NCBI GenBank assembly: GCA_038229495.1
Contig: JBBROJ010000007.1
Span: 3,263-67,262, forward strand
Length of the DNA: 64,000 bases
Source of the DNA: Chthonomonadales bacterium
GTDB taxonomy: Bacteria; Armatimonadota; Chthonomonadetes; Chthonomonadales; CAJBBX01
Direction of reading: 5' to 3'
A program made the translations under genes and the position numbers. The notes beneath the pieces are model-generated. The model saw only the letters and a list, made by a program, of their open reading frames with translations, did no database searches and was not told where the DNA came from. Numbering within the stretch: position 1 is the stretch's first letter; the number at the start of each line of letters is the position of its first letter. Shown piece after piece: positions 1,756 through 63,396 of the stretch.

Positions 1756-1880
1756 GAGTCGATGGGTCGATGGGTCAATGGGTCAATGAGTCAACGGGTC
1801 AATGGGTCAATTTGTAAATGAACGGCCTGCCCATCTGCCCATTGACTAATTGACTAATTGACTAATTGACTAATTGACCG
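1756..1880. repeat. Paired complementary octamer arrays: 7 x GGGTCRAT (1756-1811) and 5 x ATTGACTA (1841-1880)
   Basis: Read directly from the sequence. GTCAAT and ATTGAC are reverse complements, so the arrays can form a long imperfect hairpin. They fill the gap between the convergent genes ending at 1740 and 1881. Confidence 0.9.
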
Positions 1881-2645
1881 TCAAGTAAACCGACGGCGAA
1901 TCTGGTAGCTGATCAGGTCGGCCAGCAGAACCATTCCCACCAGCAGCAGAACGTAGACACTCACCTTTTGCCACGCAAAATACCCCATCTGCGCCTTCAG
2001 CTCGAACCCGATTCCCCCCGCTCCCACGATTCCCACGATGGTCGCCGCGCTGATGTTGAGCTCCCAGGCGTAAAGCGTATGGGACAGAAACTGGGGCAGC
2101 GCCTGGGGAAGCATGCCATAGGCAAATACCTGCGCCGGGGTCCCTCCTACCGCCTTGACCGCCTCGATCGGGGCCGGGTGGACGCTTTCCAACGCCTCCG
2201 CGAAGAGCTTGGAGAGCATGACGAAGGAGCCGATTCCGATTCCAAGCGCGCCGGGGAACGGCCCAAGCCCGACGATATACACAAAGAGAATTGCATAAAT
2301 GAGGGACGGAATCGCCCGCAGGACGTTGAGGACCGTCTTGACCGCCACGGTGAGGCCCCGCGGGAGGGCGGACGTGCGGGCGGCAAGGAATCCCACGGGA
2401 AGCGCGAATATGAAGCCGATGAAGGTGCCCAGAACCGCCATCTGGATAGTCACCTTGAGCGCCTCCCACGCTTTGGGAAGCACGGACCAATCCGGCGGGA
2501 ACATCTGGCGGACGTACTCGGCTCCGAACGAAAGACCGCTCCGTAAGCGTGAGGCGTCGACGCTCATCCCCTGCCACGACCAGATCAGGACGGCGGCAAG
2601 CAGGAGGGTGAACGCAATTCGCGTGGAGACTCGGCGCAGGCGCAT
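1881..2645 (-). CDS. phnE: Phosphonate ABC transporter permease PhnE
   Basis: 254 aa polytopic membrane ORF. It has the PhnE-type EAA-loop region (EAVKAVGGTPAQVFAYGMLPQALPQF) and a GAGGIGFEL motif. Confidence 0.8.
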   Translation of the reverse strand: MRLRRVSTRIAFTLLLAAVLIWSWQGMSVDASRLRSGLSFGAEYVRQMFPPDWSVLPKAWEALKVTIQMAVLGTFIGFIFALPVGFLAARTSALPRGLTVAVKTVLNVLRAIPSLIYAILFVYIVGLGPFPGALGIGIGSFVMLSKLFAEALESVHPAPIEAVKAVGGTPAQVFAYGMLPQALPQFLSHTLYAWELNISAATIVGIVGAGGIGFELKAQMGYFAWQKVSVYVLLLVGMVLLADLISYQIRRRFT

Positions 2646-2703
2646 TGCAGGATTCTACCCCACGCCGATGCCGGGCCGGCGTGAGGGAGGGAGCGGGCAT
2701 CCG

Positions 2704-2952
2704 CTAAAGCTCATAGTAGACGTGCGCGGCGGAACGCTCTTCGTCGGTCAGAAAGCTGCGGCAGATGAGGCAAAGGCCGGTCTGGTCAATGTCCAGCGCG
2801 AAGCATTGAAAACACTTGCCACGCTTGACGGCGTTCGCCACGAGCTTGGGATTCTTGAGGGCCCACAGCACGCGGTCGCGCGCAATGCCTCCATTTGCCG
2901 AGAGCGAGAAGTAGTCGTTATTGACGGGTTTGTCGTGATAGCGATTCAGCAT
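2704..2952 (-). CDS. Small Cys-rich hypothetical protein (CFQC...CLIC zinc-ribbon-like)
   Basis: 82 aa ORF directly upstream of phnE on the same strand. It has two CxxC pairs. No family recognised. Confidence 0.45.
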   Translation of the reverse strand: MLNRYHDKPVNNDYFSLSANGGIARDRVLWALKNPKLVANAVKRGKCFQCFALDIDQTGLCLICRSFLTDEERSAAHVYYEL

Positions 2953-3267
2953 AGACGCTCGCTACGGAGTAGTTGCGGAAGGGCGCGCCTCAATATGGCA
3001 CATTAACGCTGAAATGGGAAGAGCCGAGAATCGCTGGAATTGTTAAGTCTTGGTGAGAATCGCTGCCTGCACCGTGTCCCGGAAATGAGTTTCCGGGCTG
3101 TAATACAAACCCGGCCTGCGCGGGCTAAATACAAGCCACGCAGGTGGCTTTCGTTTTGCAGCCGGGAAATTCATTTCCCGGTAATCGATCTCACCAAGAC
3201 TGAACAGATACGAATCGCTGGAACTGGCGAAGCGCCCTTCCTGCGCCCGATTCACAATAGCGGACTC

Positions 3268-4692
3268 TCAGGAGTGAGCGGAAGCGGGATGCGCGGTGTC
3301 CGCGGGCGCGGGCACGCCGTAGAAGAACTTCACCCAAAGAGAAAACATTATCACCGTCGCCACCGCAATCGTAAGCCAAACGCCGCCAATGATGTCGTAG
3401 AGCAGCTTCAGATTGAGACCCGCTATAAGCACGCACACCGCATACCCTGTCGCTTGCAACCATGCGGGATTCGTGAATTCGCCCATGCGACGGCGGTCTG
3501 AAGTGAACATCATCAGCGGGAAGATGGCGAACGAGAGCTGCATCGACAGCACCACTTGCGACATTACGAGCAGATTGACCGTACCCTTGCCGCCGTTGGC
3601 CGCAACCATGAAGATAGCGGGAACCAGCGCGATGCCTCGCGTGATCATACGGCGCAGCCACGGCGCGATGCGTATGTTCAGGAAGCCCTCCATTACAATT
3701 TGGCCGGCCAGAGTCCCGGTAATGGTTGAGGATTGGCCTGAAGCCAGCAGCGCTACCGCAAAAGCGGTCGCCGCGCCGCCGCCCAGCAGCGGGCGGAGGA
3801 GGGCGGGCGCGTCGGCAAAATCGTCCACAATGTGGCCCCTGCCATGGAAAACGGCGGCCGCCAGAACGAGAATCGCTGCGTTGACGAAGAAGGCGAAGCC
3901 CAGCGCCACAAAGGTATCCACGGAGTTGAACTTGATCGCTTCGCGGATTCCGGCAGGCGTCCGATCCGTGGCGCGGGTCTGTACGAGCGACGAATGGAGG
4001 TAGAGGTTGTGCGGCATCACCGTCGCGCCCAGAATGCCGAGCGCAACCAGAAGCGACTCGCCGGAAAGCAATGAGGGGGTCACCAGGCCATGAGCAACCG
4101 CGCCCCAGTTCGGTTTGGCAAGGAACATTTCCAGCGCGAAACAGCCCGCAACTGTACCCACGAGAGTCAGTATTATCGCCTCGATTTTGCGGAATCCGAA
4201 TCGCATAAGCGCCAGGAGGGCGAGCACGTCGAGACCGGTGATCAAGACCCCGTAAACAAGGGGAATTTTGAAAAGAAGATTGAGCGCTATGGCGGACCCG
4301 ATGACCTCCGCTAGATCGCAGGCGATAATGGCAATCTCGCAGAGCAGCCAGAGAGCGATTGCCGCGGGCTTCTTGTAGTAGTCCCTGCACGCCTGCGCAA
4401 GATCCCGACCGGTGACCAGCCCCAGCCTTGCGCAAAGTGTTTGCAGCAGCATCGCCATAAGATTCGAGGCGAGAATGACCCAGAGAAGCGAATAGCCATA
4501 GAGAGAGCCGCCTTTGAGGTCCGTAGCCCAGTTGCCGGGGTCCATGTAGCCGACGCTGACAAGATAGGCGGGGCCCGCGAACGCCAGGAATCGGCGCATC
4601 CATCCGCCGCCGGCGGGAATGCTGATCGACCTGTGCACCTCGGGAAGCGAAGGCAGTCCAACCTGATTCATTTTCGCATCCTGTGAAGTCAT
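3268..4692 (-). CDS. mntH: NRAMP-family divalent metal (Mn2+/Fe2+) transporter MntH
   Basis: 474 aa. It carries GPAYLVSVGYMDPGNWATDL and MPHNLYLHSSLV, the signature NRAMP motifs. Confidence 0.92.
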   Translation of the reverse strand: MTSQDAKMNQVGLPSLPEVHRSISIPAGGGWMRRFLAFAGPAYLVSVGYMDPGNWATDLKGGSLYGYSLLWVILASNLMAMLLQTLCARLGLVTGRDLAQACRDYYKKPAAIALWLLCEIAIIACDLAEVIGSAIALNLLFKIPLVYGVLITGLDVLALLALMRFGFRKIEAIILTLVGTVAGCFALEMFLAKPNWGAVAHGLVTPSLLSGESLLVALGILGATVMPHNLYLHSSLVQTRATDRTPAGIREAIKFNSVDTFVALGFAFFVNAAILVLAAAVFHGRGHIVDDFADAPALLRPLLGGGAATAFAVALLASGQSSTITGTLAGQIVMEGFLNIRIAPWLRRMITRGIALVPAIFMVAANGGKGTVNLLVMSQVVLSMQLSFAIFPLMMFTSDRRRMGEFTNPAWLQATGYAVCVLIAGLNLKLLYDIIGGVWLTIAVATVIMFSLWVKFFYGVPAPADTAHPASAHS

Positions 4693-4720: not shown

Positions 4721-4860
4721 GCGAGGCACTGAAGTGACCTCGCTGTCTCAGGCGCTCTGACCAGTGGCGCGTCGAGAACTCTGGGCCTGCGGCAAACGAG
4801 TGAATGAATTCACTCGCTGGAGGGCCTGCAGCCAATCGTCCTCGCGGACGGAAAAATACT
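4721..4860 (+). repeat. MITE-like dispersed repeat, copy A (about 140 bp), between mntR and mntH
   Basis: The ends (GCGAGGCACTGAAGTGAC ... CCAATCGTCCTCGCGGACGGAAAAATACT) match copy C at 33498-33569. The internal palindrome (CGAGTGAATGAATTCACTCG) and the CTGTCTCAGGCGCTCTGACCAGTGGCGCG block match the reverse complement of 43085-43185. Confidence 0.75.
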
Positions 4861-4877: not shown

Positions 4878-5597
4878 TTACCAGCCCGCTGTGCCCGCCA
4901 GGACTGTTTCTCTCTCCGTCTCCGAAATACGCTCGACAAAGACGTGCCCCGCCAGCTCGCGGCCTACCGAGTGCATGATGCCGCCAATCTCCAGGAGAAG
5001 CGGACCGTTAAAGGGCTGCTTTTCCCTCACGGTAATGACGCCTTCAAGCCGCATTCCGATCCCGGCGAGGTAGCGCAGCGCTTCCGGATCGTTGTCCCGC
5101 ACTCGGAGAACGATCAGCGTATCGCCGGCCTCGCTTTCGGCGAGGGGTTCGCCGCGCTGCGGGGCTACCGTACCCTCGCGTGTCGGAATGGGGTCGCCAT
5201 GCGGATCGCGCACAGGGTAGTCCAGCATGCGATCTATGCGGTCTTCAAACTCTTCGGAGATGTGGTGCTCCAGCTTTTCGGCCTCGGCGTCCACTTCGTC
5301 CCAGCTATAACCAAGCGCCTGATGAAGATAGAGCTCCAGAAGGCGGTGATGCCGAATCACCTCCAGCGCGACGCGTTCTCCCGCCTCGGTCAGGCGGACG
5401 CCGTAGTAGGGCGTGTAATCGAGCAGCCTGCTTTCGGCGAGCGCCTTCATCATCTTGGTGGCGGCGGCGGGAGTCGTCTTCATGCGGCGCGAAAGGGCGG
5501 TCGTAGACACGGCCTCCTCTTCCTGCTGCAATTTGTAGATTACTTTCACGTAGTCTTCCACCGCCTGGCTGAAGACTCGGCCGCCCCTATCACCCAT
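4878..5597 (-). CDS. mntR: DtxR/MntR-family metal-dependent transcriptional repressor with C-terminal FeoA/SH3-like domain
   Basis: 239 aa. It has an N-terminal winged HTH (EDYVKVIYKLQ...ST..LSRRM), a metal-binding/dimerisation region (HHRLLELYL) and a C-terminal SH3-like tail. It lies immediately upstream of mntH on the same strand. Confidence 0.85.
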   Translation of the reverse strand: MGDRGGRVFSQAVEDYVKVIYKLQQEEEAVSTTALSRRMKTTPAAATKMMKALAESRLLDYTPYYGVRLTEAGERVALEVIRHHRLLELYLHQALGYSWDEVDAEAEKLEHHISEEFEDRIDRMLDYPVRDPHGDPIPTREGTVAPQRGEPLAESEAGDTLIVLRVRDNDPEALRYLAGIGMRLEGVITVREKQPFNGPLLLEIGGIMHSVGRELAGHVFVERISETERETVLAGTAGW

Positions 5598-14242: not shown

Positions 14243-14704
14243 ATGGCAGTAATGGAGCCCCCAATCCCAGACACGATTTGTATTCAGCAGGGTCCGCCTA
14301 ATAGGCCGGATTCAATATGGGATGTACGCGAACGGCTGGAGGAGAACTTCCGGCGCGTCGAGCGGCTGCTGACCGAAATGGAGATGCAGCAGGTTCCGAA
14401 GATGAGGCTGGCGGCCGCTGCCGAGATGAGGCAGCACATCGCCCTGGCGGAGAAAACATTGGAGACGGCCGCGCGCGCCGAAGCGGTGCGAGCGTTCGAG
14501 GAGATCGTGCTAACCGTCCTGTCGGAGGCGAGCGCTAAGGTGCTGCGCAGGGTATTGGAGGCGTTGAAAGCGAGGGGTGCACATGGAAACGATCACGCCG
14601 TACCTGACGTCACTCTGTCGGAAGATAGAGGCGAAGTTCGGCAGCGAGATTTGGGACGACAGGATGCTGAGCTATCGGAGCAGTCCGGAGAGCTTTGCGG
14701 ATGA
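14243..14704 (+). CDS. Coiled-coil hypothetical protein in the terminase small-subunit position
   Basis: 153 aa, directly upstream of and overlapping TerL. Assignment is by position only, with no recognisable motif. Confidence 0.35.
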   Translation: MAVMEPPIPDTICIQQGPPNRPDSIWDVRERLEENFRRVERLLTEMEMQQVPKMRLAAAAEMRQHIALAEKTLETAARAEAVRAFEEIVLTVLSEASAKVLRRVLEALKARGAHGNDHAVPDVTLSEDRGEVRQRDLGRQDAELSEQSGELCG

Positions 14705-16145
14705 GGTGCTCGGCTCGCGCTGGTGGTCGCGGCAGCGTTCGGTGGCCGGGCTGGTAGCTAAGCACCGGCGAACGGCAGTCAAATCCGCGAATGGAGTCGG
14801 CAAGACCTATCTGGCGGCCGATCTGGCGCTCTGGTTTCTCTACACGCACCGCCCGTCGATTGTCCTGACGACTGCCCCTACGTGGAGGCAGGTGCGGCAT
14901 CTGCTCTGGGAAGAGATTCGAAAGCGGATGCGCTCCGCGCGGACGCCGCTGCCGGGAACGCTGCTCAATACGCGAATCTCGGCGGGTGAAGGCTGGTTCG
15001 CGCTGGGGCTGGCGACCGACGATCCGGTCAAGTTTCAGGGGTTTCACGCGGAGAACCTGCTCATTATCTTTGACGAGGCGAGCGGCATCCCCGATCCAAT
15101 CTGGGATGCGGCCGAGGGAGTGGCGGTCGGAAGGCATAACCGGATTCTTGCAATTGGCAACCCGCTGACGACATCGGGCCGGTTCTACAAGCTGTTCCGG
15201 TCTGGGTCCGCGTGGAGAAGAGAGACGATTAGCGCCCTGGAGCATCCGAATGTGACCGGAGAAGAGCCGCCGATTCCCGGCGCGGTAACCCCGGAGGCAA
15301 TTTCCGAGCGAGTCGCGGAGTGGTGCCAAGAAGAGGTCGTTGGGTCGTTGGGTGATGGGGTCGTCGGGGACGGCGCATCTGTAATGCCGGGAGCGTTCGT
15401 GTGGCAAGGGCGGCGGTACAAGCCCAACAACCTATTTAAGGCGCGCGTTTTGGGCGAGTTCCCGGATTCGGAGGATGACACACTCATTCCGCTACCCTGG
15501 ATAGAGGCGGCCGTCGAGCGAGAACTACCACCTCTATCCACGGAAGGGTGCAAGCGCGTGGCGGCGGATGTTGCGCGATTCGGCAGCGACTGTACGGTAA
15601 TCGGAATGCGAATCGGGCCGCGCGTGGTGAGGATGGATGTCGTGCGGGGAGCGGACCTAATGGAGGTGGCGGGCCGTATTATGAAGCTCGCCTATGAGGA
15701 GCATCCTGACAGCATTGCCGTGGACGCAATCGGCCTGGGCGCGGGAGTCGTGGACCGCCTGGTGGAACTGAACCTGGGCGAAGTCGAGGCGGTAAACGTC
15801 GCGAATACGGCGAATAATTCACAACGATTCGCAAACCGGCGCGCCGAGCTCTACTGGTCGCTGCGCGAGCGATTCCGAATTGGCAACATTTCGATTCCGC
15901 GCGATGATGCGCTCGTGGAGGAATTGTCCGGGCTGCGATATTTGCACACGTCCAGGGGCCAGATTAGAATGGAGAGCAAAGAGGATATGAAACGGCGTGG
16001 CATGCATTCGCCGGACAGGGCCGACATGCTGGCGATGCTTTTCGATTCGAGCGCGGAAGTATTGGCCGCGATTCATCCGGGCCGCGCGGCGAGGACGGAA
16101 GATTCGCCGTCAGCGCAATTCCGCTCCGAAATGAACGGCTGGTGA
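14577..16145 (+). CDS. terL: Phage terminase large subunit
   Basis: 522 aa. It has Walker A (KSANGVGKTY), Walker B (LLIIFDEASGI) and a C-terminal RNaseH-like nuclease region (RVAADVARFGSD...DAIGLG). The start is uncertain (14577, 14583 or 14664). Confidence 0.88.
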   Translation: MHMETITPYLTSLCRKIEAKFGSEIWDDRMLSYRSSPESFADEVLGSRWWSRQRSVAGLVAKHRRTAVKSANGVGKTYLAADLALWFLYTHRPSIVLTTAPTWRQVRHLLWEEIRKRMRSARTPLPGTLLNTRISAGEGWFALGLATDDPVKFQGFHAENLLIIFDEASGIPDPIWDAAEGVAVGRHNRILAIGNPLTTSGRFYKLFRSGSAWRRETISALEHPNVTGEEPPIPGAVTPEAISERVAEWCQEEVVGSLGDGVVGDGASVMPGAFVWQGRRYKPNNLFKARVLGEFPDSEDDTLIPLPWIEAAVERELPPLSTEGCKRVAADVARFGSDCTVIGMRIGPRVVRMDVVRGADLMEVAGRIMKLAYEEHPDSIAVDAIGLGAGVVDRLVELNLGEVEAVNVANTANNSQRFANRRAELYWSLRERFRIGNISIPRDDALVEELSGLRYLHTSRGQIRMESKEDMKRRGMHSPDRADMLAMLFDSSAEVLAAIHPGRAARTEDSPSAQFRSEMNGW

Positions 16146-16206
16146 ATTCTGCGAACCATGAGAAACGTGAGAGAAGACAATGCGTGTAAAACGCATGTCT
16201 GGTGGA

Positions 16207-16245
16207 CCTTCGGCCAAACGTCCTTCGGCCAAACGTCCTCCGGAC
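16207..16245. repeat. 2.5 copies of the 15-mer CCTTCGGCCAAACGT
   Basis: Read directly from the intergenic region after terL. An adjacent 8-bp hairpin (GTCCTCCG...CGGAGGAC) follows. Confidence 0.85.
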
Positions 16246-16336
16246 GGTAAGACATTGTTGCATTCGGAGGACGCTTGACGGTGCATCCGTCCCACCGGAC
16301 GCCGATTTACTCCGTTGGGCCGACGTCAGAATCATG

Positions 16337-16365
16337 TTGACTGTGCCCCTCCCGTCTGCTACACT
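16337..16365 (+). promoter_or_regulatory. Sigma70-type promoter TTGACT-17 nt-TACACT
   Basis: Hexamers and 17-nt spacer read directly. It lies about 80 nt upstream of the DUF3467 gene. Confidence 0.55.
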
Positions 16366-16443
16366 GATCACAGCGGGAGGGCCCTTCTCTAAGCGGATGC
16401 CCTTTCCAATTCGCTTCGAATCAAACCGAGGAGAGGGGTTCAA

Positions 16444-16713
16444 ATGAACGACGACGATTTCATCCGCCTGCCGGAATACTACACGGACTCGGTCAATTTC
16501 ATGACCAACATTTACGGCTTCACGCTGGAGTTCGGCGCTACCCAGGCGCAGGAACAGCCGCCGAGACCTCTCGTCCGCATCAAAATGAGCCCGCAGCACG
16601 CCAAGATCATGAGCCTGCTGCTTCGCAAGAACGTGCAGGAGTACGAAAAGCGAATCGGCACCGTCATCCTTCCTGAGGGGCTCTACCAGGAGCTGGGCAT
16701 TCAGGACGAATAG
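16444..16713 (+). CDS. DUF3467 domain protein
   Basis: 89 aa. YTDSVNFMTNIYGFTLEFG...RIKMSPQHAKIMSLLLRKNVQEYEKRIG matches my memory of DUF3467. Confidence 0.6.
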   Translation: MNDDDFIRLPEYYTDSVNFMTNIYGFTLEFGATQAQEQPPRPLVRIKMSPQHAKIMSLLLRKNVQEYEKRIGTVILPEGLYQELGIQDE

Positions 16714-16790
16714 CGAGGCGTGAGGCGTGAGGCGTGAGGCGAGTAGCGCGGGGCGTGAGTTAAGAGTCGAGAGTTAAGAGTCGAGAGTTT
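16713..16790. repeat. Heptamer array (GYGAGGC x about 7) followed by 2 x 14-mer TAAGAGTCGAGAGT
   Basis: Starts on the stop codon of the DUF3467 gene. GAGTCGAGAG is the reverse complement of the CTCTCGACTC units at 22133-22153. Confidence 0.9.
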
Positions 16791-16792
16791 TA

Positions 16793-16824
16793 GAGGGGCC
16801 GCTTCCATATGGAAGCGGCCCCTC
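16793..16824 (+). terminator. Perfect 14-bp GC-rich hairpin GAGGGGCCGCTTCC-ATAT-GGAAGCGGCCCCTC
   Basis: Read directly. The trailing CGCTTT is only weakly U-rich. Confidence 0.55.
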
Positions 16825-16828
16825 CGCT

Positions 16829-18118
16829 TTGGGCGGCCATTCGAGGTCGCGGGAGACAGGTATGGCGCTCACAGACGAATTGAATGGCAGCTACCAGCGG
16901 GCCGCAGAGAAGACAGCGCCGGAACAGTTCCGCGAGGAGATGACCGCGTGGGACGCCGTGTTCCGTCAGGCGTTTCGGATTCCACCCTACAATCCTGACG
17001 GCCTGTTATCGTCGCGCGGCATTGAGACCTACGACAAGATGATGGCCGATAGTCAGATTCGGGCCTCGATCAATACAAAACGTTACGCCTTACTCGCCCG
17101 GCCGTGGCAGGTTTTCCCATCCGTAAAGGACCAGGCGCACCCGGAATACCGCGCGGCATGCGAGGCGCGGGACTTCGTCGAGGATGCGCTTCGGAGCCTG
17201 CGCGGGCCGGACGGATCGGGCCGCGAATTTCGCCACACCCTTTTCGAGATGATGTCGGCGTTCTATCGCGGGTTCTCGCTGGCCGAGATGATCTGGCGGG
17301 TGGAGGAGCGGGGACGATGGCGGGGCAGGTATACGCTCGGGGCCATCAAGTTCAAGAATCCGAAGCAGATCGGCTTCGAGCTGGACGATTACCTCAACGT
17401 GCAGGCGGTGACGAGCCTCACCCCGACCGGCGGCCTGGTGAGTGTGCCCCGCGGCAAGTGCTTGCTCTATGTTTATAACCAGCGGGACGAGCTACCCTAC
17501 GGAGACAGCGATCTGCGCGCGGTCTACAAGCACTACATGAGCAAGCTGCGAATCATCGAGTTTTGGAACCTGCGATTGCAGCGGTTCGGCATTCCCTTCG
17601 CCTTTGCGAGCGTGGGGAACGGATCGGATACGCAATCCAGTAAGGTCAAGGAAATTCTGAGGGACTTCCAACAGGAATCGAGCGCGGTTTTCCCCACGAA
17701 CGTCAAGCCGGAGCTTCTCGAGCCGCGCAGCGATACCGGCGATCCGTTCCTGAGCGCATTGGAGTGGCACAACCAGCAGATCGCCGTCGGCATCTTGCTG
17801 CAAACGTTAACATCAACCGAAGGCAAGCGATCTGGCTCCATGGCGCTGGGGCGGGTGCATTTCGACATCCTTCTGTTCGCGCTGGAGTGCATGAAGCAGG
17901 ATATTGAAGCTACGGTGAACGCGCAGATAGTGCGCCCGCTGATCGACTACAACTTCGGGCATGGGCTGTACCCCTCGTTCTCGCTGGGGAATCTGGACGA
18001 AAAGGACCTACCCAAGCTGGCTCAGGCGGTGGACGTACTGCTAAGACACCAGGTCGTGGGGCCGAAGGAGCCGGTTCTGCGGGAGATGTTCAATCTGCCC
18101 GCGGCGGAAGAGGGATAG
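16829..18118 (+). CDS. Phage portal protein (DUF935 / Mu gp29-like)
   Basis: 429 aa, located after terL. N-terminal region ETYDKMMADSQIRASINTKRYALLARPWQV is typical of DUF935 portals. The likely start is M at 16862. Confidence 0.75.
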   Translation: MGGHSRSRETGMALTDELNGSYQRAAEKTAPEQFREEMTAWDAVFRQAFRIPPYNPDGLLSSRGIETYDKMMADSQIRASINTKRYALLARPWQVFPSVKDQAHPEYRAACEARDFVEDALRSLRGPDGSGREFRHTLFEMMSAFYRGFSLAEMIWRVEERGRWRGRYTLGAIKFKNPKQIGFELDDYLNVQAVTSLTPTGGLVSVPRGKCLLYVYNQRDELPYGDSDLRAVYKHYMSKLRIIEFWNLRLQRFGIPFAFASVGNGSDTQSSKVKEILRDFQQESSAVFPTNVKPELLEPRSDTGDPFLSALEWHNQQIAVGILLQTLTSTEGKRSGSMALGRVHFDILLFALECMKQDIEATVNAQIVRPLIDYNFGHGLYPSFSLGNLDEKDLPKLAQAVDVLLRHQVVGPKEPVLREMFNLPAAEEG

Positions 18119-18120
18119 AA

Positions 18121-18240
18121 GTCGTTGGGTCGCCCCCGGCCCCCAATTCTGGGGGAGTATGCGGGTGGTTGGGTCGTTGGGATGCCCCCCGGCCCCCAAT
18201 CCTGGGGGAGTATGCGGGTGGATGGGCCGTTGGGCGGGCG
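18121..18240. repeat. Two about 50-bp direct repeats, each containing GGGTCGTT-type octamers plus the hairpin GGCCCCCAATYCTGGGGGAGTATGCGGGTGG
   Basis: Copy 1 is 18121-18168 and copy 2 is 18169-18221. The array begins 2 nt after the portal stop. ORF 18169..18384 over it looks spurious. Confidence 0.9.
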
Positions 18241-18327
18241 TTTAACACTCATTCCAGTGTAGAAGCGGCGCAAGCGGAGGCCAGGACGTCTCCGATTGTC
18301 TACAGGCGAAGCGGCGCAACTACAATG

Positions 18328-18353
18328 AGGGAGGCCGCAATAGCGGCCTCCCT
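18328..18353. terminator. Hairpin AGGGAGGCCGC-AATA-GCGGCCTCCCT (bidirectional terminator candidate)
   Basis: An 11-bp perfect stem lying 36 nt beyond the stop of the minus-strand PEP-CTERM gene. Confidence 0.55.
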
Positions 18354-18388
18354 TGAGTTTACTCGTGAATTTGGAGCGCTCTGAATGT

Positions 18389-18958
18389 CTATGCGCGCTT
18401 ACGACGGATCAAGTACGCAGCGCCCGGAACGAGCATTCCGGCCATCAGGCCCAGCGTGCCCGGCTCAGGAACGCTGTTCGCGACCTGGGTTACGCTGATG
18501 TCGTCGATGCGAAGGTAAGACGGATCTTGTCGAAAGCCGAACTTCAGATTCGTGCTGGCGCCGGTGGCAGCGACATTATAGGAATACTCGGTGTAACCTC
18601 CCGCAGGCAGCGTATCAGGGCTGCCGGTACGGTCGTCAATAATGGATCCATCCCACGAAACTTGAAATTCGCGGGTGCCGCCGTCGACCTGCAGCCATAG
18701 GTCGATCAGGTACGACGCTCCAGGCGCGGTGACGATGTTCTGCTCGATAAACCCGAGGGAACCGACCGGGCCAAATTGTGCGGCCCAAAGCCCCGTATGC
18801 ACAGGAGAGGTGACGACGCTCGTAAATCCCATATTGCCGGAACGGACCCATCCTGAGAAGTCGCCTGTTTCGAAATCGCCATTTACGACCTGTGCTCGCG
18901 CCGCAAGAGGCGCGATTGCCAGGGCTATTAGCCCAAGAACTACGACCGGATTCTTCAT
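18389..18958 (-). CDS. PEP-CTERM sorting-domain protein with CBM/DUF642-like beta-sandwich
   Basis: 189 aa with a signal peptide and NGDFETGDFSGW. The C-terminal VPEPGTLGLMAGMLVPGAAYLIRRKRA is a PEP-CTERM anchor. Confidence 0.85.
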   Translation of the reverse strand: MKNPVVVLGLIALAIAPLAARAQVVNGDFETGDFSGWVRSGNMGFTSVVTSPVHTGLWAAQFGPVGSLGFIEQNIVTAPGASYLIDLWLQVDGGTREFQVSWDGSIIDDRTGSPDTLPAGGYTEYSYNVAATGASTNLKFGFRQDPSYLRIDDISVTQVANSVPEPGTLGLMAGMLVPGAAYLIRRKRA

Positions 18959-19116
18959 CTGATATACACTCCTGAATCTGAAAAATGAGTAGTCTGCTGG
19001 CAGTCAGCAGACTCAACCGTTCAGAGTGCATATCAGCAATCATCATGCCAGAAAGGGGCGTTGGGGACCAAACAGGTACATGCGCGGGCGTGGCTTCACG
19101 CTCGGGAGCGTGCTTT

Positions 19117-19893: not shown

Positions 19894-19940
19894 GAACGGA
19901 TTCCCCTCGACCATTTTACTTGTTCGCCAGGAGGAACACA

Positions 19941-20969: not shown

Positions 20970-20996
20970 CGGGAAATCAACCACCCGTTTTGATTG

Positions 20997-21087
20997 AGGC
21001 ACAGAGACACAGAGTTGGAAGGAAGCTGATTCGAGCTTAAGGTCAGGTTACACTCCTCCTTGCTCTTCTCTGTGTCTCCCTGTCTCT
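20997..21087. repeat. Inverted repeat GAGACACAGAG (21004-21014) / CTCTGTGTCTC (21068-21078) built from CAGAGA-type short repeats
   Basis: Read directly. It lies between the scaffold gene and the DUF2190 gene. Confidence 0.8.
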
Positions 21088-21131
21088 AGCGAAGCGGGTG
21101 GTAAATCGCATCTTTTTCGAAGGAGAATGAA

Positions 21132-21984: not shown

Positions 21985-22011
21985 GCGTTCGTTCATTTTA
22001 GACCCGAGCAT

Positions 22012-22046: not shown

Positions 22047-22111
22047 TTCGGCGAAGATAAGAAATAACCCATCGACCATGATCCGCCCGGCGCTAACCCG
22101 CCGGGATTTCT

Positions 22112-22160
22112 CACGACTCACGACTCACGACTCTCGACTCACGACTCTCGACTCACGACT
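22112..22160. repeat. Seven tandem heptamers CWCGACT ending 1 nt before the capsid gene Shine-Dalgarno
   Basis: The units read CACGACT x3, CTCGACT, CACGACT, CTCGACT, CACGACT. GAGGAG follows at 22161-22166 and the ATG is at 22173. Confidence 0.92.
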
Positions 22161-23268: not shown

Positions 23269-23565
23269 ATGCCCGACTACGCCGCGGTATCAGTCTTTAG
23301 CCCCCGTACGCGGCGATGGGAGCTCATGAGCGACAGGGGCCGAGTGATTGTGTTCGATACAGCGGAGGTAGCCTGGAACTGGCTGCCTCTGCTCGGAGGC
23401 GGGCGTACCTATGCATCGGACGCCCGTTCTCTTTCTCTCTGCTTTCTGGAGCTGTCCGGCGTCGCTCCCAATCGCGCGCGGGTCGTAACGCACTACATGC
23501 CCGAAGAGCGCGCGCCATGGCGGGGCCATATCATTTGGTCCGAATGGTGGGACAGACAATTGTAA
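23269..23565 (+). CDS. Hypothetical protein (phage module)
   Basis: 98 aa ORF with an AGGAGGGAACGAG SD region upstream. No family recognised. Confidence 0.45.
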   Translation: MPDYAAVSVFSPRTRRWELMSDRGRVIVFDTAEVAWNWLPLLGGGRTYASDARSLSLCFLELSGVAPNRARVVTHYMPEERAPWRGHIIWSEWWDRQL

Positions 23566-23663
23566 GTGCTGAGTGCTGAGTGATGAGTGCTGAGTAGGGA
23601 GCAACCTCCGTGTTGCGCCGTGTTCTTGACGTTCTCTCAGCACTCGGCACTCAGCACTCAGCG
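23566..23663. repeat. Complementary heptamer arrays GTGCTGA x4 (23566-23593) and CTCAGCA x4 (23636-23663) flanking a 42-nt loop
   Basis: Starts on the nucleotide after the stop codon. The loop contains AGGGAGCAACCTCCGTGTTGCGC (23596-23618), the exact reverse complement of 63321-63343. Confidence 0.92.
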
Positions 23664-24071: not shown

Positions 24072-24082
24072 GGAGGGCGTTC

Positions 24083-24152
24083 AGGTATCAGGTTCCAGGT
24101 ATCGGCCTCACCTGCCACCTGTCACCTGACACCTGTTACCTGACACCTGAAC
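24083..24152. repeat. CAGGTWY x3 followed by 6 x YACCTGW heptamers (mutually complementary), ending at the SD of the next gene
   Basis: Read directly. GGAGG is at 24156-24160 and the ATG at 24169. GGTGTCAGGTG at 57007-57030 is the complement of these units. Confidence 0.9.
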
Positions 24153-24168
24153 ACCGGAGGACAACACG

Positions 24169-38695: not shown

Positions 38696-38766
38696 GGACT
38701 AACTGGCATCGACTGGAATCGACTGACATCAACTGGCATCGACTGGAACGGACTAATACGGACTAG
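38696..38766. repeat. About 7 tandem decamers (GGCATCGACT / GGAATCGACT / GGAACGGACT ...)
   Basis: Read directly, 70 nt upstream of the E1 start in a 680-nt divergent intergenic region. Confidence 0.88.
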
Positions 38767-41855: not shown

Positions 41856-41903
41856 CGGCATTATTTGACCACGGCGGGCACGGCGAACGGCTTTTTTGCC
41901 ACT

Positions 41904-42225
41904 GGGACACGGGGACACGGGGAGAATAGACACACGACCACCGACCCCAGACCGCTGCCCCGATATTCCGATGGGAGCCTTAGCGGCCTGAAGAATCCGG
42001 CCACTCTCGCTAATTGTCAAGGTAGATTGCTATGACGCCTGCCCGCCGTTTCTCTGTTGGCATATGGGCAGTCGGCCTGTTTATCGTGAGTCGGCGAACG
42101 GGTGACGGCGGGTTCCGACGGACTTAATTGAACCACAAAGGCACCAAGACACAAAGAAGGGCCAACAAGAAGGGCGATAAATCCCCATTCTGGTATTTCC
42201 CCGTGTCCCCCGTGCTCCCCGTGGT
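41904..42225. repeat. Complementary short-repeat arrays GGGACACGGGGACACGGGGAG (41904-41924) and TCCCCGTGTCCCCCGTGCTCCCCGTGG (42198-42225) bracketing about 270 bp of non-coding DNA
   Basis: Read directly. ORF 42017..42289 across the right arm looks spurious. Confidence 0.8.
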
Positions 42226-43185: not shown

Positions 43186-43224
43186 ATGAGTGCGGATTTG
43201 AAAGCTGGAAATATCTGTTTGGAA

Positions 43225-49450: not shown

Positions 49451-49912
49451 ATGGCGAAACGCATCTACGTAGGCAGCTTGCCCTACAGCACGGACGAGAG
49501 ACAATTGGAAGCTCTGTTCGCTCAGTACGGTCAGGTTAGCGATGTACAGGTTATCACGGACAAGTACACCGGACAGGCAAAAGGGTTCGCCTTTGTCGAA
49601 ATGGCAAACGACGACGAGGCCCAGAAGGCCATGGACGCCCTGAACGGCAGTGAGATGGGCGGTCGCACCCTTACCGTCAATGAAGCGCGCGAGCGCGACA
49701 GCGGCGGCGGTGGCGGTCGTTCAGGTGGCGGTGGCGGCGGCCGATTCGGCGGTGGTGGCGGTGGTGGCTACGGTGGTGGCGGCGGCGGTGGTTACGGCGG
49801 AGGAGGCGGCGGCTATGGCGGCGGCGGCGGCGGAAGTCGTGGTGGCGGCGGCGGCGGAGGCTACGGCGGTGGTGGCGGAAGCCGCGGTGGCGGGGACAAG
49901 CGACGCTACTAA
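49451..49912 (+). CDS. RRM-type RNA-binding protein with about 70-aa Gly/Tyr/Arg-rich tail
   Basis: RNP2 (IYVGSL) and RNP1 (KGFAFVEM) motifs. The tail is made of GGGGGGY/GGSRGG repeats. Confidence 0.9.
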   Translation: MAKRIYVGSLPYSTDERQLEALFAQYGQVSDVQVITDKYTGQAKGFAFVEMANDDEAQKAMDALNGSEMGGRTLTVNEARERDSGGGGGRSGGGGGGRFGGGGGGGYGGGGGGGYGGGGGGYGGGGGGSRGGGGGGGYGGGGGSRGGGDKRRY

Positions 49913-49976: not shown

Positions 49977-50105
49977 CTCATATTGCTTCATTCTCCACCA
50001 GATCAATGGCCGGGGCGAATTGCTCCGGTCTTTTCAATTCCTCGTTCTATCATCCCGTCTCCGGGCCCCACCTGCCAATGCTGCGGAGCTTGGTGTCGCG
50101 CCCCA

Positions 50106-50149
50106 GGTTCGAGCCCTGGTTCGAGCCCTGGTTCGAGACATGGTTCGAC
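50106..50149. repeat. 3.7 copies of the 12-mer GGTTCGAGCCCT
   Basis: Read directly from an intergenic region. Confidence 0.9.
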
Positions 50150-50287: not shown

Positions 50288-50418
50288 TACTCCTCCAGGA
50301 TTGGGGGCCCGGGGGTGGGCCGCTCCTCCAGGATTGGGGGCCGGGGGTGGGCCGCTCCTCCACGATTGGGGGCCGGGGGTGGGCTGCTCCCCCAGGATTG
50401 GGGGCCGGGGGGTGGCTC
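50288..50418. repeat. Four tandem about 31-bp units CTCCTCCAGGATTGGGGGCCGGGGGTGGGCCG
   Basis: The units are the reverse complement of the GGCCCCCAATCCTGGGGGAG hairpin module at 18136-18212. ORFs 50006..50485 and 50301..50759 over them look spurious. Confidence 0.9.
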
Positions 50419-56246: not shown

Positions 56247-57008
56247 ATGAGCTTCGCTAACATGAGTCCGGCGGACCGGATGAAGGCCTCCGGCTTAATA
56301 GGACTGATAGTTGTTATTCTGTTCTTTGTCGTTCATACGATTCTCGGATCGGTCGCTCCCAAGAAGCCGGCCGCAACGACTGCGGATGCCACAAGCGTAG
56401 CCGGGGTTGCGGCGGCGCCCGCGCCGGCGACCGGTCCCAGCCCCACGGCACCCGCGACCGGAGACGGGTCTTTCCCAATGGAAAAAGTTACCGGCGCTAA
56501 GGGAAGCGGACTGGCGCATAGTCTGGCGATGGACATACCGGACCCGTTTGTGCCCATTAACGATCCGAAGAATAAAGGGAACAAGGCAAGCCAGACTGCC
56601 GGCAGCAAGCCCACGGAGCCGCGCGTCGAGGTGGATCCCATATTCAATTCGAATCGGCCTGGTGGAAGCGGCCCGTCGGGGGGCTTTGTGTCTGGCCCGA
56701 CCCTTCCGGCCCTTCCTTCCGCCGGCGCGGGCAATACCGGCGCGCCCGGTCCCATGGCTATCGCTCCTCTTGGCGCGCCTCATGTTGAGCCGGAGATCAA
56801 GGTCATCGGGCTCGTCGACGGCGATCCTCCCGTGGCGACCGTGCAGGTGTCCGGCCGGGTCATAGTCGCCCGGCGCGGGGATGCTCTCGCCATCGGTTAC
56901 CGCGTAATGAATATCTCTCCCGAAGGCGTCGTGGTGCGGTGCGGCAAGGAGTGGAAAACGCTGCGCGTGGGTGGCATGTTGAACGAAGCGAAGATTGAGG
57001 GCAAGTAG
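56247..57008 (+). CDS. Membrane-anchored Pro-rich protein with PilP/GspC-HR-like C-terminal beta domain
   Basis: TM helix, a long P/A/G linker, then IKVIGLVDGDPPVATVQVSGRVIVARRGDALAIGYRVMNISPEGVVV. Confidence 0.45.
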   Translation: MSFANMSPADRMKASGLIGLIVVILFFVVHTILGSVAPKKPAATTADATSVAGVAAAPAPATGPSPTAPATGDGSFPMEKVTGAKGSGLAHSLAMDIPDPFVPINDPKNKGNKASQTAGSKPTEPRVEVDPIFNSNRPGGSGPSGGFVSGPTLPALPSAGAGNTGAPGPMAIAPLGAPHVEPEIKVIGLVDGDPPVATVQVSGRVIVARRGDALAIGYRVMNISPEGVVVRCGKEWKTLRVGGMLNEAKIEGK

Positions 57009-57030
57009 GTGTCGGGTGTCAGGTGTTAGG
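57007..57030. repeat. Three heptamers RGGTGTY overlapping the stop codon
   Basis: AGGTGTC GGGTGTC AGGTGTT, the complement of the YACCTGW units at 24108-24152. Confidence 0.85.
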
Positions 57031-61589: not shown

Positions 61590-62165
61590 TTAACTCGCGG
61601 GATCCGGCCGAGGATCGAGATTATGCGCCTTAAGCGAGGCTACCGCCTCCTCCTTACTGATTCCCAGCTTCTCCAGCATGGTAATCAAAACGGCGTTCTG
61701 AAACTCCAGATGGCTGAGAATCACCTCAATCTCTTTCTCCGCTTTCACGTTCACTTCGAAGTCGTTCTCGGCGCGCAGCTCGGAGTGATGGCCTTGAAGG
61801 TTCTGGCCTACCATGATGAGCGGCATGAGAAGTATTTGAATCACGTTGCTCATAAGGAGATAGGCGACGAACGCGGGGAAAGGGTCGAATGCCTTCCAAT
61901 GGAGCGCAGGGACTTCCGTGGCAAGGATGTTGTAGCCGCACCAAAGAACGGTCCAAATGAAGATAGAGAGAAAGAAGCCCATCGTTCCGACCCGCGTTGT
62001 GATGAATATCGCCAACCTGTCTAGTCGGGACATTTTCTCTACGTGCTCCTTGTTAATATTTCGCGCCGGCTTGCGCGCTTTGATGAGTTCCCGCACGGGG
62101 CGCGGATGAAACTGGTTTAGAACGTCTGGCATTGCGCGCATTCCTCCACATAACCGAATTATCAA
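61590..62165 (-). CDS. DUF1003 membrane protein
   Basis: 191 aa. LDRLAIFITTRVGTMGFF..., DPFPAFVAYLLMSNVIQILLMPLIMVGQN and a C-terminal coiled coil are typical of DUF1003. The start is uncertain. Confidence 0.65.
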   Translation of the reverse strand: MIIRLCGGMRAMPDVLNQFHPRPVRELIKARKPARNINKEHVEKMSRLDRLAIFITTRVGTMGFFLSIFIWTVLWCGYNILATEVPALHWKAFDPFPAFVAYLLMSNVIQILLMPLIMVGQNLQGHHSELRAENDFEVNVKAEKEIEVILSHLEFQNAVLITMLEKLGISKEEAVASLKAHNLDPRPDPAS

Positions 62166-62287
62166 ATTATCGAGTTCGAGAAGCGGTCTCTAGCAACTGA
62201 GCGAAAGGCCTCGTGTTGAAGTTCCATATTGGCGACCGCTCCACAGAGTGTGCCCGCCGTAGTTCCGCAGCTTAAAGGTTCAACCGC

Positions 62288-63226
62288 ATGCTGAAACCTG
62301 CCGCATCGACCGGTGGTACAATCATTCATGCGATGAATCCTAATCTGCCTGTTTCACATTCTTCGCATGTTCACATTGTACGCTTCTTGTGCTTCTTGCG
62401 CTTTGCGATGAACAACATTGCGGACTGCCCATTTTACCCGCCCATGAATACTACCAGGACGTGCAGGATATGCCTGTACTGTTCAAAACCGATCCTCGAC
62501 GATGACCGCGTGGCAGCCTGCAGCTGCTGCTTCACCGCGCACCATGAGGAGTGCTGGAATCGCAACGGCCGATGCAGCACGTTCCGATGCATGGGCGAAC
62601 CGCGGACCATGCGGGGCGGTGATCTTCCCATAGTGGTTCAGGCTGCCCTGGACACCGGTAATGAGCAGCCTGAAACATGCCCCTTCTGCGCCAACCGAGT
62701 CTATCCCGGCACACTGCAAAGCAAGCCGGTTCACGCGGCAGGCCAGCCGAATCAGGGCGCGCAAAGCGGACTCATGTTTGTAGGGAAAGGAAAGCCGAAT
62801 CCGCACAAGGATTGGTTCGGGAAGCGCTTTCTATCCAAGATGCTCGGTAACAGAAGCTGGTTCCTCCCTGGAGGGCACATCAAATCCCGTTCATGCGCCA
62901 AGTGTCACAGACTGTTCTTGTGGGGAGCGGCGGTGGACGACGCTTTCTCTCAGAAGGCGCTGGACGAGTCCGGAGATCGATTCTGCCCTCACTGCGCGGT
63001 GCCACTCTGGCAGGGGCAAATATTATTGAACAACAAGCATCATGGCGGCGCGCGATTCGAATGCGACGGCATACCCACTCTGCATCAGGATTGGTTCGGC
63101 CATAATGTTCTCGACCGCTTCTTTCTTAATCGGTGGAACCCGACCGTCCAGACGCTTCCCGCCCGCTCCTGCCCCGACTGCCAGTTTACGGAGGTTGCCG
63201 GTCGGCCCATCTATCGGTTTCGATAA
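62288..63226 (+). CDS. Prok-RING-like zinc finger protein with two C-terminal zinc-ribbon repeats (DUF6487-like)
   Basis: CRICLYCSKPI...AACSCCFTAHHEECW..NGRCSTFRC is a binuclear treble-clef/RING-like pattern. It is followed by two repeats of CPxC...H(K/Q)DWFG...SCxxC. The likely start is M41 (62408). Confidence 0.55.
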   Translation: MLKPAASTGGTIIHAMNPNLPVSHSSHVHIVRFLCFLRFAMNNIADCPFYPPMNTTRTCRICLYCSKPILDDDRVAACSCCFTAHHEECWNRNGRCSTFRCMGEPRTMRGGDLPIVVQAALDTGNEQPETCPFCANRVYPGTLQSKPVHAAGQPNQGAQSGLMFVGKGKPNPHKDWFGKRFLSKMLGNRSWFLPGGHIKSRSCAKCHRLFLWGAAVDDAFSQKALDESGDRFCPHCAVPLWQGQILLNNKHHGGARFECDGIPTLHQDWFGHNVLDRFFLNRWNPTVQTLPARSCPDCQFTEVAGRPIYRFR

Positions 63227-63233
63227 GCGGTAT

Positions 63234-63396
63234 GGGTCGTTGGGTCGACGGGCCGTTGAGCCGTTGGGTCGTTGGGTCGATGGGCCGTTGGGTCGTTGGG
63301 TCGTTGGGCCGTTGGGAGCGGCGCAACACGGAGGTTGCTCCCTCCAAAAGGCGAGCGGCCACATAGGGCCGCCCCTACTCAGCACTCAGCACTCAA
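63234..63396. repeat. Composite element: 10 x octamer GGGYCGWY (63234-63313), 23-nt core GCGCAACACGGAGGTTGCTCCCT (63321-63343), GC hairpin, then 3 x ACTCAGC heptamers (63376-63396)
   Basis: Read directly. It starts 8 nt after the stop at 63226. The core and heptamers equal the reverse complement of 23566-23618. Confidence 0.92.

Follow-up and report, generated by a model that had tools for sequence, protein, structure and literature searches.

Intergenic gaps in a stretch of about 64 kb from the chromosome of a Chthonomonadales soil bacterium (the window, by which we mean the whole stretch analysed) are repeatedly occupied by arrays of short head-to-tail repeats. Many of these arrays are accompanied by an array of the complementary unit, and many lie directly against a stop codon or a Shine-Dalgarno sequence (SD). 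The question they raise is whether they form a regulatory system, as a preliminary description of the window suggested, or are DNA that the genome tolerates. The analysis presented here shows that the arrays grow and shrink by slippage, and that unit families and larger modules have dispersed to unrelated loci and to related species. In appearance the arrays are closer to selfish DNA that is tolerated than to a regulatory system, and they are probably selfish or neutral long simple sequence repeats (LSSR), of the short tandemly repeated repetitive (STRR) kind, expanded in one Chthonomonadales clade. The evidence does not support a regulatory role tied to particular loci.

Abundance of the arrays

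An array was defined as a tandem repeat found by Tandem Repeats Finder (TRF) with a unit of 5-16 nt and at least 3 copies, the non-coding share of the window (about 20%) being set by a self-trained gene caller. By this definition the window holds 15 arrays, where 50 dinucleotide-preserving shuffles average 0.02 (maximum 1); shuffling the intergenic DNA alone 100 times yielded none. For units of 6-16 nt the count is 15-17. The arrays thus belong to the LSSR class, which comprises head-to-tail units of 5-11 nt present in at least 3 copies and far above chance. Twelve of the 15 fall in the non-coding DNA. The intergenic location given in the preliminary description therefore holds for most arrays, though not strictly, since the array at 15335-15368 lies within a terminase-like gene.

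The 14 loci of the preliminary description all carry tandem repeats according to TRF, at or within a few bases of where it had placed them. The weakest are 20996-21014 (2.4 copies), 41900-41923 and 42199-42223 (about 3 copies each) and 57007-57030 (3.4 copies). Two of the 14, at 18121-18234 (53-nt unit) and 50290-50411 (32-nt unit), are not short-unit arrays: their core is a palindrome, CCCCCGGCCCCCAATCCTGGGGGAG, resembling repetitive extragenic palindromic (REP) sequences, and its family stands in tandem at 18133-18210 and 50290-50411 in opposite orientations. The exact CCCCCGGCCCCCAATCCTGGGGGAG motif occurs in none of the related loci that were fetched, which marks the family as species-specific. 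Looser look-alikes (CCCCAATTCTAGGGG) are seen in spacers of one related locus, L009.

Variation among related species and strains

The portal-like protein encoded at 16862-18118 matches only metagenome-assembled genomes (MAGs) of Chthonomonadales or Chthonomonadaceae, in the phylum Armatimonadota, with identities of 57-76%. The capsid-like protein (P0001) has one 100% match, on a single NCBI contig, followed by relatives at 83-87% that were recovered from metagenomes of soil and rhizosphere. Since the relatives are all Chthonomonadales, an origin in cyanobacteria such as Gloeobacter was rejected, and the cyanobacterial affinity implied earlier falls with it. A scan of viral contigs with the capsid protein yielded one short, distant locus of no use.

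Both proteins are encoded in a cluster of phage-like head genes, described below, whose synteny across the order provides a series of orthologous intercistronic spacers. Related loci carrying the cluster are numbered here with the prefix L and were assigned to clades by a neighbour-joining tree of the capsid protein. The array-rich loci make up one clade, comprising the window, L013-L016 (with L020 and L021), L005, and L017, L018, L025 and L026; L013-L016 are one species sampled four times and recovered also as L020 and L021. In the sister lineages (L001, L002, L004, L024, L022 and L023) there are no intergenic arrays, and coding density is 0.87-0.95 as against 0.78-0.86 in the array-rich loci. 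Orthologous spacers measure 0-48 nt where array-free, some with stop and start codons abutting (tga-atg), and 62-269 nt where arrays are present. The usual expanded spacer reads, in order, stop codon, G/T-rich array, short core, complementary C/A-rich array, SD and start codon.

Both the unit and the presence of an array vary at orthologous spacers, even between species whose capsid proteins are 83-86% identical. The spacer between the genes at 23269 and 23682 (g23269 and g23682), for example, contains GTGCTGA/TCAGCAC in the window, CTCAACA in L013 and TGTGTGGG/CACACCCA in L017. The next spacer, g23682 to g24169, is 97 nt long with arrays in the window and also bears arrays in L017, whereas it is 12 nt long and array-free in L013 and 4-31 nt long in array-free relatives. 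Conversely, in the spacer from the major capsid gene (mcp) to g23269 it is L013 that has a long stem, of about 100 bp, whereas the window has a plain hairpin. These differences indicate that arrays were gained after the species split and turn over fast.

Comparison of copy number between strains, suggested in the preliminary description, reveals length polymorphism in the sister species. L013 and L015 differ by 148 single-nucleotide polymorphisms (SNPs) in 13.1 kb and by three indels, of 24, 15 and 80 nt; each indel falls within an array, and the 24- and 80-nt sizes are whole multiples of the 8-nt unit. Between L013 and either L014 or L016 there are about 10 SNPs and a single indel of 24 nt (3x8). 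This indel sits in the array of the terminase-like gene, giving proteins of 529 and 537 residues. Indels confined to arrays are the signature of slipped-strand mispairing. Among the four strains of this species only changes in unit number were seen, with no polymorphism between filled and empty sites.

The same comparisons bear on the suspicion of an assembly artefact, with collapsed or chimeric repeats in a MAG taken for arrays, which we regard as hardly credible. Identical arrays are present in independent assemblies of the sister species, from four samples and two pipelines (ENA and JGI: L013-L016, L020, L021), and the array architecture is found also in the Logan and NCBI assemblies of another species (L017, L018). 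Furthermore, at 24-110 nt the arrays are well within read length. What speaks for the suspicion is the single assembly available for the window's species, on which the exact copy numbers in the window rest.

Dispersal of units and modules

Recurrence of units between non-adjacent loci is well above expectation, with 12 identical-unit pairs compared to 0.9 expected and 36 pairs at no more than one mismatch compared to 8.3. The sharing of unit families by distant loci, claimed from the outset, is thereby borne out. Units that recur across loci and species include GGGTCGTT, CTCAGCA, GGTGTTCA/CCTGAACA, ACGCAAAG and GGTCAAYN, the last also as a pair family, GGTCAAYN/NRTTGACC, at three unrelated spacers. 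Larger modules, too, are found more than once. A module made of the 25-nt core CGGCGCAACACGGAGGTTGCTCCCT and its CTCAGCA array stands at 23565-23620 and again, inverted and 40 kb away, at 63319-63395; the two copies are 100% identical, and a 30-nt hairpin has been inserted at the second locus. The associated 25-nt cores occur at two loci each in the 64 kb, and a species-specific core, CCCCGGCCTGAA..., adjoins arrays at three sites in L013. As a dispersed core, GCGGCGCAAC was not significant (2 matches compared to 0.57 expected). Distant complementary partners, which the preliminary description had seen as parts of a coordinated system, turn out instead to be one unit family inserted in opposite orientation. 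Since units and modules recur at new loci, slippage alone is insufficient and ectopic recombination or mobility is needed.

Mobility could have a specific form. The arrays could be small non-autonomous mobile elements, either foldback-type miniature inverted-repeat transposable elements or mosaics like REPs and bacterial interspersed mosaic elements (BIMEs), moved by a transposase encoded elsewhere, for example a REP-associated tyrosine transposase (RAYT) or TIRYT of the IS200/IS605 family. They would copy into gene-end gaps and occasionally in-frame into genes, in the manner of Rickettsia palindromic elements. We consider this improbable. It would account for the identical modules in opposite orientation, for the reuse of species-specific cores beside arrays, for the unit families common to several loci and species, including the pair family at three unrelated spacers, and for the array-laden inserts of variable length within the terminase-like and DinB genes. 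It also draws on the GTAG at an array-core junction (GAGTAGGGAGC), given that GTAG tags RAYT-associated REPs (PMC3733652), and on the SD-like GGAGGRC at both flanks of the 24081-24155 insert. The latter is, however, the one suggestive case of a target-site duplication: none was consistent on comparing filled with empty orthologous spacers, and defined termini are likewise inconsistent across insertions. No transposase or RAYT is found among 60 window proteins scanned against Pfam, the four strains provide no filled and empty alleles, and arm lengths are very unequal at several loci.

Folding of the paired arrays

The four complementary pairs named in the preliminary description are real, and the three adjacent ones fold strongly. 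This was assessed through z-scores against 200 dinucleotide shuffles, none of which folded as well: the values are -6.9 for 1741-1880, -6.7 for 23566-23681 and -3.4 and -6.0 for the two strands of 24072-24168. The window's array stems go down to a z-score of -7.7, and those of L013 and L015 score -17 to -19. The fold of 1741-1880 is a ladder of helices of 6-7 bp with single unpaired bases between them, matching the long imperfect hairpins with periodic mismatches that had been predicted. In the 23565-23662 unit the stem covers nt 1-99 of a 116-nt spacer.

Sense and antisense strands fold about equally, and G-U pairing confers no steady advantage on the sense strand; there is therefore no sign of strand-specific selection acting through G-U pairing. 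Reading the hairpins as intrinsic (Rho-independent) terminators was rejected, the array hairpins being without T-tails. No U-tract follows them, an SD and a start codon being found there instead, and none is among the matches of a terminator scan. When Rfam covariance models were applied, a tRNA-Val was the sole match in the window and the arrays matched no curated family. Taken with the turnover at orthologous spacers, the equal folding of both strands and the lack of U-tails argue against both locus-specific regulation and intrinsic termination.

The two arms of a pair mirror one another down to the unit variants and their order, with identities of 97% in L015, 94% in L013, and 90% (23565-23662) and 78% in the window. 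Symmetrical nesting of two different arrays (A-B-core-B'-A') is seen in L013 and L015. Arm lengths are very unequal at several loci; in L015 the right arm has 13.6 copies and the left arm 4. The mirrored variants suggest that arms arise by inverted duplication (or mutual homogenisation) and then diverge by independent slippage, of which the L015 arms and the homogeneous ATTGACTA arm at 1841-1878 are examples.

An architecture of this type invites comparison with foldback elements. It is conceivable, if doubtful, that the paired arrays are a bacterial counterpart of these: self-propagating modules, consisting of a palindromic core with arms of tandem 7-8-mers, which spread to gene-end gaps and protein loops and stay phenotypically silent by folding out of the transcript, so that the stop codon comes to lie beside the following ribosome-binding site again. 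In a stronger version the host would have co-opted such modules to set the relative expression of cistrons in the head-gene cluster.

Placement and polarity

Statistics on placement pool the window with L013 and L017, the gene tables being used as supplied for the latter two loci. Array density is 3.1 per kb in convergent gaps and 2.3 in co-directional gaps, compared to 0.18 in divergent gaps (one array in 5.5 kb). The gene on the 5' side of the G-rich strand is the closer one in 35 cases versus 8 (p=4e-5). A G-rich array following a stop codon lies at a median of 8 nt from it, and C-rich arrays end 10-30 nt before start codons. Arrays were termed flush when no more than 10 nt from a stop or 20 nt from a start, with uniform placement of each array within its own spacer as the null; 21 are flush where 6.2 are expected, so that placement, which the preliminary description had held up against a random distribution, is non-random. 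Once the main stem is removed, 7 of 9 paired spacers leave 11-35 nt between stop and start. The genes flanking the arrays include dapB and those for an M16 peptidase, an RRM protein, the portal and the capsid.

Within the window, the seven arrays reported to abut stops lie 17, 1, 2, -1, 9, -2 and 6 nt from them. The upstream open reading frames (ORFs) are backed by Pfam or by conservation, except 56247-57008, which is a gene call alone. The three arrays reported to end just before an SD are also confirmed.

Such placement is one ground for supposing that the arrays are functional RNA elements, selected stem-loops in 3' untranslated regions (UTRs) or between cistrons. They might protect upstream mRNA against 3' exonucleases, serve RNase III processing or, since they begin inside the footprint of a terminating ribosome, tune either upstream translation, as E. 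coli REPs do, or its coupling to the next gene, and single C/A-rich arrays before an SD would be unstructured, translation-enhancing leaders. We judge this unlikely. It makes sense of the very stable folds, of arms that are 90-97% complementary, of the excess of flush arrays at stops and SDs, of the near-confinement to transcribed gaps and of the C/A-rich arrays lying directly before the capsid-gene SD in two species; comparable Xanthomonas repeats, moreover, are mostly transcribed (PMC4692102). It fares poorly with the variation in presence, unit and pairing at orthologous spacers of close species, and with sister lineages that cope with about 0-50 nt there. Strain variants that unbalance the arms, as in L015, sit no better with it. 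Nor do the sense strands show the G-U/A-C asymmetry that such selection would favour, U-tails are lacking, and arrays are found in coding loops too.

Several points weigh against regarding the arrays as selfish or neutral repeats. A positive function, exerted at the stop codon or in the RNA, could explain the excess of flush placement and the G-rich-first polarity equally well. The CTCACGA array at 22110-22160 has a counterpart at the matching position upstream of the capsid gene in L013 (CTCAACA, 4.6 copies), and the occurrence of both, in two species, could signify a conserved role. Slippage alone does not account for identical units, or core-plus-array modules, turning up at new loci. Variation in copy number was seen in the sister species, the window's own species being represented by one assembly. 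Finally, the material is the window with about 100 kb of related loci rather than a whole genome. On balance we still find the selfish or neutral reading the more probable one.

Comparison with known repeats

Repeats of this general kind are familiar from other phyla. The class of 'long simple sequence repeats' was reportedly delineated by Mrazek and co-workers, and the cyanobacterial STRR are said to have been described by Mazel et al. in 1990 as short tandemly repeated repetitive heptamers. STRR families in heterocystous cyanobacteria include CCCCAGT, TTGGTCA and CAACAGT. The likeness to STRR-type repeats remarked upon earlier is apt. The window arrays share with STRR and with the TAACTGA repeats the reuse of a few units of the 7-nt class in intergenic DNA, strain differences of whole units, and positions before starts or overlapping stops. 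The units themselves differ, TTGGTCA being present only within the octamer GGTCAAYT. TAACTGA sets, furthermore, are mostly unpaired, have 2-6 copies and are oriented toward the downstream start, whereas stop-flush G-rich arrays and hairpin pairs dominate here. The TAACTGA repeats of Beggiatoaceae, cyanobacteria and Bacteroidetes are start-proximal and stop-overlapping and show strain indels in 7-nt steps (MacGregor 2015, PMC4679880); the introduction of the same paper reviews the class of 'long SSRs' (simple sequence repeats).

The closest parallel is provided by the GGGAATC/GGGNATC and GGGGA(C/T)T repeats of Xanthomonas and Nostoc, which have a non-coding bias and whose function is unresolved (Rehm et al. 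2015, PMC4692102). They lie within 50 bp of a stop on the coding strand, overlap with the stop included, or within 50 bp upstream of an ORF on the other strand, and they occur between aligned ORFs and rarely between divergent ones (PMC4692102). Their inverted copies can form stem-loops, their flanking genes are ordinary, and their length and sequence vary widely at conserved positions between close relatives (PMC4692102). As paired complements and abutment to stops are both reported there, the preliminary description overstates the unusualness of the architecture, as it does the case for regulation. The present arrays agree with the Xanthomonas and Nostoc repeats in being strongly enriched non-coding tandem units of 6-9 nt in arrays of variable length, with inverted copies and housekeeping neighbours, in having the G-rich strand by the gene on its 5' side and in being few in divergent gaps. 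They differ in belonging to Armatimonadota and in their many unit families, most without G-runs, among which octamers are as common as heptamers; paired, even nested, mirror arms dominate inside operons. The GGGNATC/GGGGAYT unit and the preference for four copies are absent, only some units carrying GGG.

For the Xanthomonas and Nostoc GGGNATC repeats, G-quadruplex formation by G3N5 repeats in DNA or RNA has been proposed. We think it very unlikely that this explains the window arrays. Three of them, GGGTCAAT (6.8 copies), TGGGTCGT (10.5 copies) and CACGGGGA (3 copies), fit or nearly fit four G3+N1-7 repeats on the sense strand after stops, and the placement rules agree with those of PMC4692102. 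Many arrays, on the other hand, have no G-run (GTGCTGA, CAGGTA, GAGGCGT, TGATGAAG, ACGCAAAG, GGAAATTG), the duplex stem formed with a complementary arm competes, and copy numbers from 2.8 to 13.6 betray no preference for exactly four units.

REP, BIME and REPIN sequences of E. coli and Pseudomonas are GTAG-tagged palindromes that can lie inside genes (PMC3733652). The arrays resemble REPs and BIMEs in being extragenic, after stops or between operon genes, hairpin-forming, mosaic, sometimes tandem and occasionally intragenic, and the 25-nt cores of the window are REP-like, one having GTAG at its edge. REPs are, however, palindromic units of 20-40 nt with a family consensus and usually a linked RAYT, whereas the arrays consist of 7-8-nt tandem units. 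REPs affect the mRNA stability and translation of the upstream gene, and for hairpins behind stop codons REP and BIME elements come nearest as a functional analogue.

Eukaryotic foldback transposons have long inverted arms built of short tandem repeats, and Rickettsia palindromic elements are selfish palindromic DNA tolerated in-frame in protein-coding genes. The likeness to either is an analogy of architecture only, as no termini, transposase or evidence of transposition were seen for the window arrays. Contingency SSRs of Haemophilus, Neisseria and Moraxella have units of 1-5 nt (rarely 7) in frames or promoters and switch surface-antigen genes. The arrays are similarly prone to slippage and polymorphic in copy number; unlike contingency SSRs, they follow the stops of housekeeping and phage-like genes. 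A phase-variation role was rejected, the arrays following stop codons rather than acting as switches inside ORFs or promoters. The Rickettsia palindromic elements are mentioned in PMC3733652.

A possible route to the observed arrays

The selfish or neutral reading can be put as a sequence of steps. Arrays lengthen and shorten by slipped-strand mispairing. Mirror arms would arise by inverted duplication or intra-strand template switching, as their mirrored variants suggest, and then drift by independent slippage; the observed dispersal to new loci would have taken place by ectopic recombination or mobility. Selection would purge harmful arrays, and those that survive would be found in the transcribed gaps that follow genes, either directly against the stop or immediately 5' of the SD. 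It would exclude them from promoters, and from reading frames except at variable protein loops, where changes would come in multiples of three units. The G/T-rich arm would be kept by the stop and the C/A-rich arm, without start codons and SD-like motifs, by the next start, and Rho might enforce this G-rich-first polarity.

Tight operons would probably tolerate a paired insert by folding it out as one long stem, so that the stop and the next ribosome-binding site stay close. The effective spacer of 11-35 nt is comparable to the array-free range of 0-48 nt, suggesting that the geometry of coupling is preserved. Transcripts would then contain long imperfect stem-loops between cistrons and in 3' UTRs, which may incidentally stabilise or expose the mRNA.

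Features of the window and its genes

Positions, units and contexts of the arrays and associated elements are collected in Table 1.

Table 1. Tandem arrays and associated elements of the window (x, number of copies).
Feature	Position	Strand	Context
GRGTCRAT octamer array x6.8	1756..1811	+	17 nt past stop of MEKHLA-domain gene (1264-1740); hairpin left arm
ATTGACTA array x4.8, 100% homogeneous	1841..1878	+	right arm; mirrors left arm (1756-1811) at 78%; ends 2 nt from stop of convergent ABC-permease gene (1881-2645, minus)
GGTCGTTG array x4.2	15335..15368	+	inside terminase-large-subunit-like gene; translated in variable surface loop (VVGSLGDGVVGDG)
15-nt repeat CCTTCGGCCAAACGT x2.5	16207..16243	+	between terminase-like and DUF3467 genes
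GAGGCGT x6.4, then GAGTTAAGAGTCGA x2.4	16715..16789	+	starts 1 nt past DUF3467 stop; unpaired
conserved GC-rich hairpin	16793-16825		after 16715-16789 array
53-nt composite unit x2.2: GGGTCGTT octamers and REP-like palindrome CCCCCGGCCCCCAATYCTGGGGGAG	18121..18234	+	2 nt past portal-gene stop
GAGACACA x2.4, weak, marginal	20996..21014	+	after gene 19941-20969
CTCACGA x7.3, C/A-rich, unpaired	22110..22160	+	ends 1 nt before SD (GAGGAG) of major-capsid-like gene
foldback unit GTGCTGA x4.4, core AGGGAGCAACCTCCGTGTTGCGCCG, CTCAGCA x3.9	23565..23662	+	overlaps stop codon; ends 8 nt before SD
foldback unit YCAGGTW x3.3 and NCACCTG x6.6	24081..24155	+	fills 97-nt spacer
10-nt ACTGGCATCG x4.5	38702..38746	+	sole array found between divergent genes
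CACGGGGA x3	41900..41923	+	44 nt past dapB stop; complementary to 42199-42223
CCCCGTGYC x2.8	42199..42223	+	inverted partner of 41900 array
12-nt CCCTGGTTCGAG x3.9	50102..50148	+	downstream of RRM/glycine-rich protein gene
32-nt unit x3.8	50290..50411	+	reverse complement of REP-like palindrome at 18133 and 18186 (25-26 nt, 88-100% complementary)
AGGTGTC x3.4	57007..57030	+	overlaps stop of gene 56247-57008; 24108 family, opposite orientation
TGGGTCGT x10.5, longest array	63233..63316	+	6 nt past stop of Prok-RING gene (ends 63226)
dispersed module: core CGGCGCAACACGGAGGTTGCTCCCT, 30-nt inserted hairpin, CTCAGCA x2.7	63319..63395	+	core is 100% reverse complement of 23596-23620

The window's DNA is ordinary chromosomal DNA, with dapB, an M16 peptidase, E1 and E2 of a 2-oxoacid dehydrogenase, greA, an Nramp transporter and DtxR-family repressor, a secretin with pilM, and the RRM protein. 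The inverted pair at 41900 and 42199 encloses about 275 nt, in which a 31-codon ORF (MTPARRFSVGIWAVGLFIVSRR...) is present at 42032-42127, between the CACGGGGA and CCCCGTG arrays, in a 780-nt gap with no other called gene.

The phage-like head-gene cluster occupies 14583-25503 on the plus strand and has orthologues in L001-L029, from many Chthonomonadales MAGs. It encodes a terminase large subunit (phrog_2), a DUF3467 protein, a Mu-type portal, a major head protein (phrog_1005) and six small ORFs. Gene order is kept, with portal and major-head proteins 57-87% identical across MAGs, and the host flanks are the same throughout. Interspersed host genes are a minus-strand epimerase and a DinB polymerase, the latter in L017 and L025; tail genes are lacking nearby. 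The cluster looks like a domesticated element, similar to a gene transfer agent (GTA) or capsid-only, rather than an ordinary prophage.

The polymerase gene, of the Y family (IMS/DinB), is inserted between the capsid gene and the following gene at 6752-8830 in L017 and 2147-3770 in L025. Inverted arrays of (A/G)GGATT type lie on both sides of it, and its reading frame carries an array-laden insert of variable length, about 110 nt in L025 and about 380 nt in L017. Downstream of the portal gene, at 18263-18321 in the window and about 6920-6975 in L013, is the sequence GGAGGCCAGGACGTCTCC[G/C]ATTGTCTAC, flanked by inverted GCGGCGC(A/G) arms. It is kept between the two species though the neighbouring arrays differ, has no Rfam match, and could act as a small structured RNA or bind a protein.

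The RRM_1 RNA-binding protein (49451-49912) has a long glycine-rich tail encoded by a GGC/GGT-rich coding repeat (TRF 49701-49909), an architecture typical of cyanobacterial Rbp proteins. To tie it to the G/U-rich arrays would be pure speculation. A type II toxin-antitoxin pair, PhdYefM antitoxin and PIN-domain toxin, is encoded at 29876-30555 in a stretch of lower GC content (0.545 for 28001-30000 compared to about 0.60 overall).

Two other duplications were noted. A region of about 115 nt containing the palindrome CGAGTGAATGAATTCACTCG is duplicated and inverted at 4739-4855 and 43090-43188, with segments 82-97% complementary. The Nramp transporter gene (3268-4671, minus) has one copy upstream of it, beside the DtxR-family repressor gene (4878-5597, minus), and the duplication looks like a shared metal-responsive operator or leader that would control a second locus near 43 kb. 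A 43-nt direct repeat (31975-32017 and 33120-33162, 84% identity) copies part of the tRNA-Val gene (33113-33187, minus) about 1.1 kb away. It looks like the att-site remnant of an integrated, now mostly deleted element.

Significance

What is new here is the occurrence of such repeats in Armatimonadota, the kind being already known; no report of such repeats in Chthonomonas or Armatimonadota turned up in the limited literature collection searched. The class of long SSRs with 7-9-nt units, so far reported mainly from cyanobacteria, Xanthomonas, Burkholderia and Beggiatoaceae, is thereby extended to a little-studied phylum. In practical terms, the arrays inflate intergenic DNA, make in-frame protein insertions and can mislead gene callers, and they could serve as strain-typing markers for uncultured Chthonomonadales.

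The head-gene cluster offers a clean natural experiment, in which a clade with arrays can be set against a sister clade without them across one conserved operon. The contrast shows gain after speciation, quick turnover, and rules of placement and polarity like those in unrelated phyla. That unrelated phyla share these rules points to a general constraint (or mechanism) rather than to a lineage-specific regulator.

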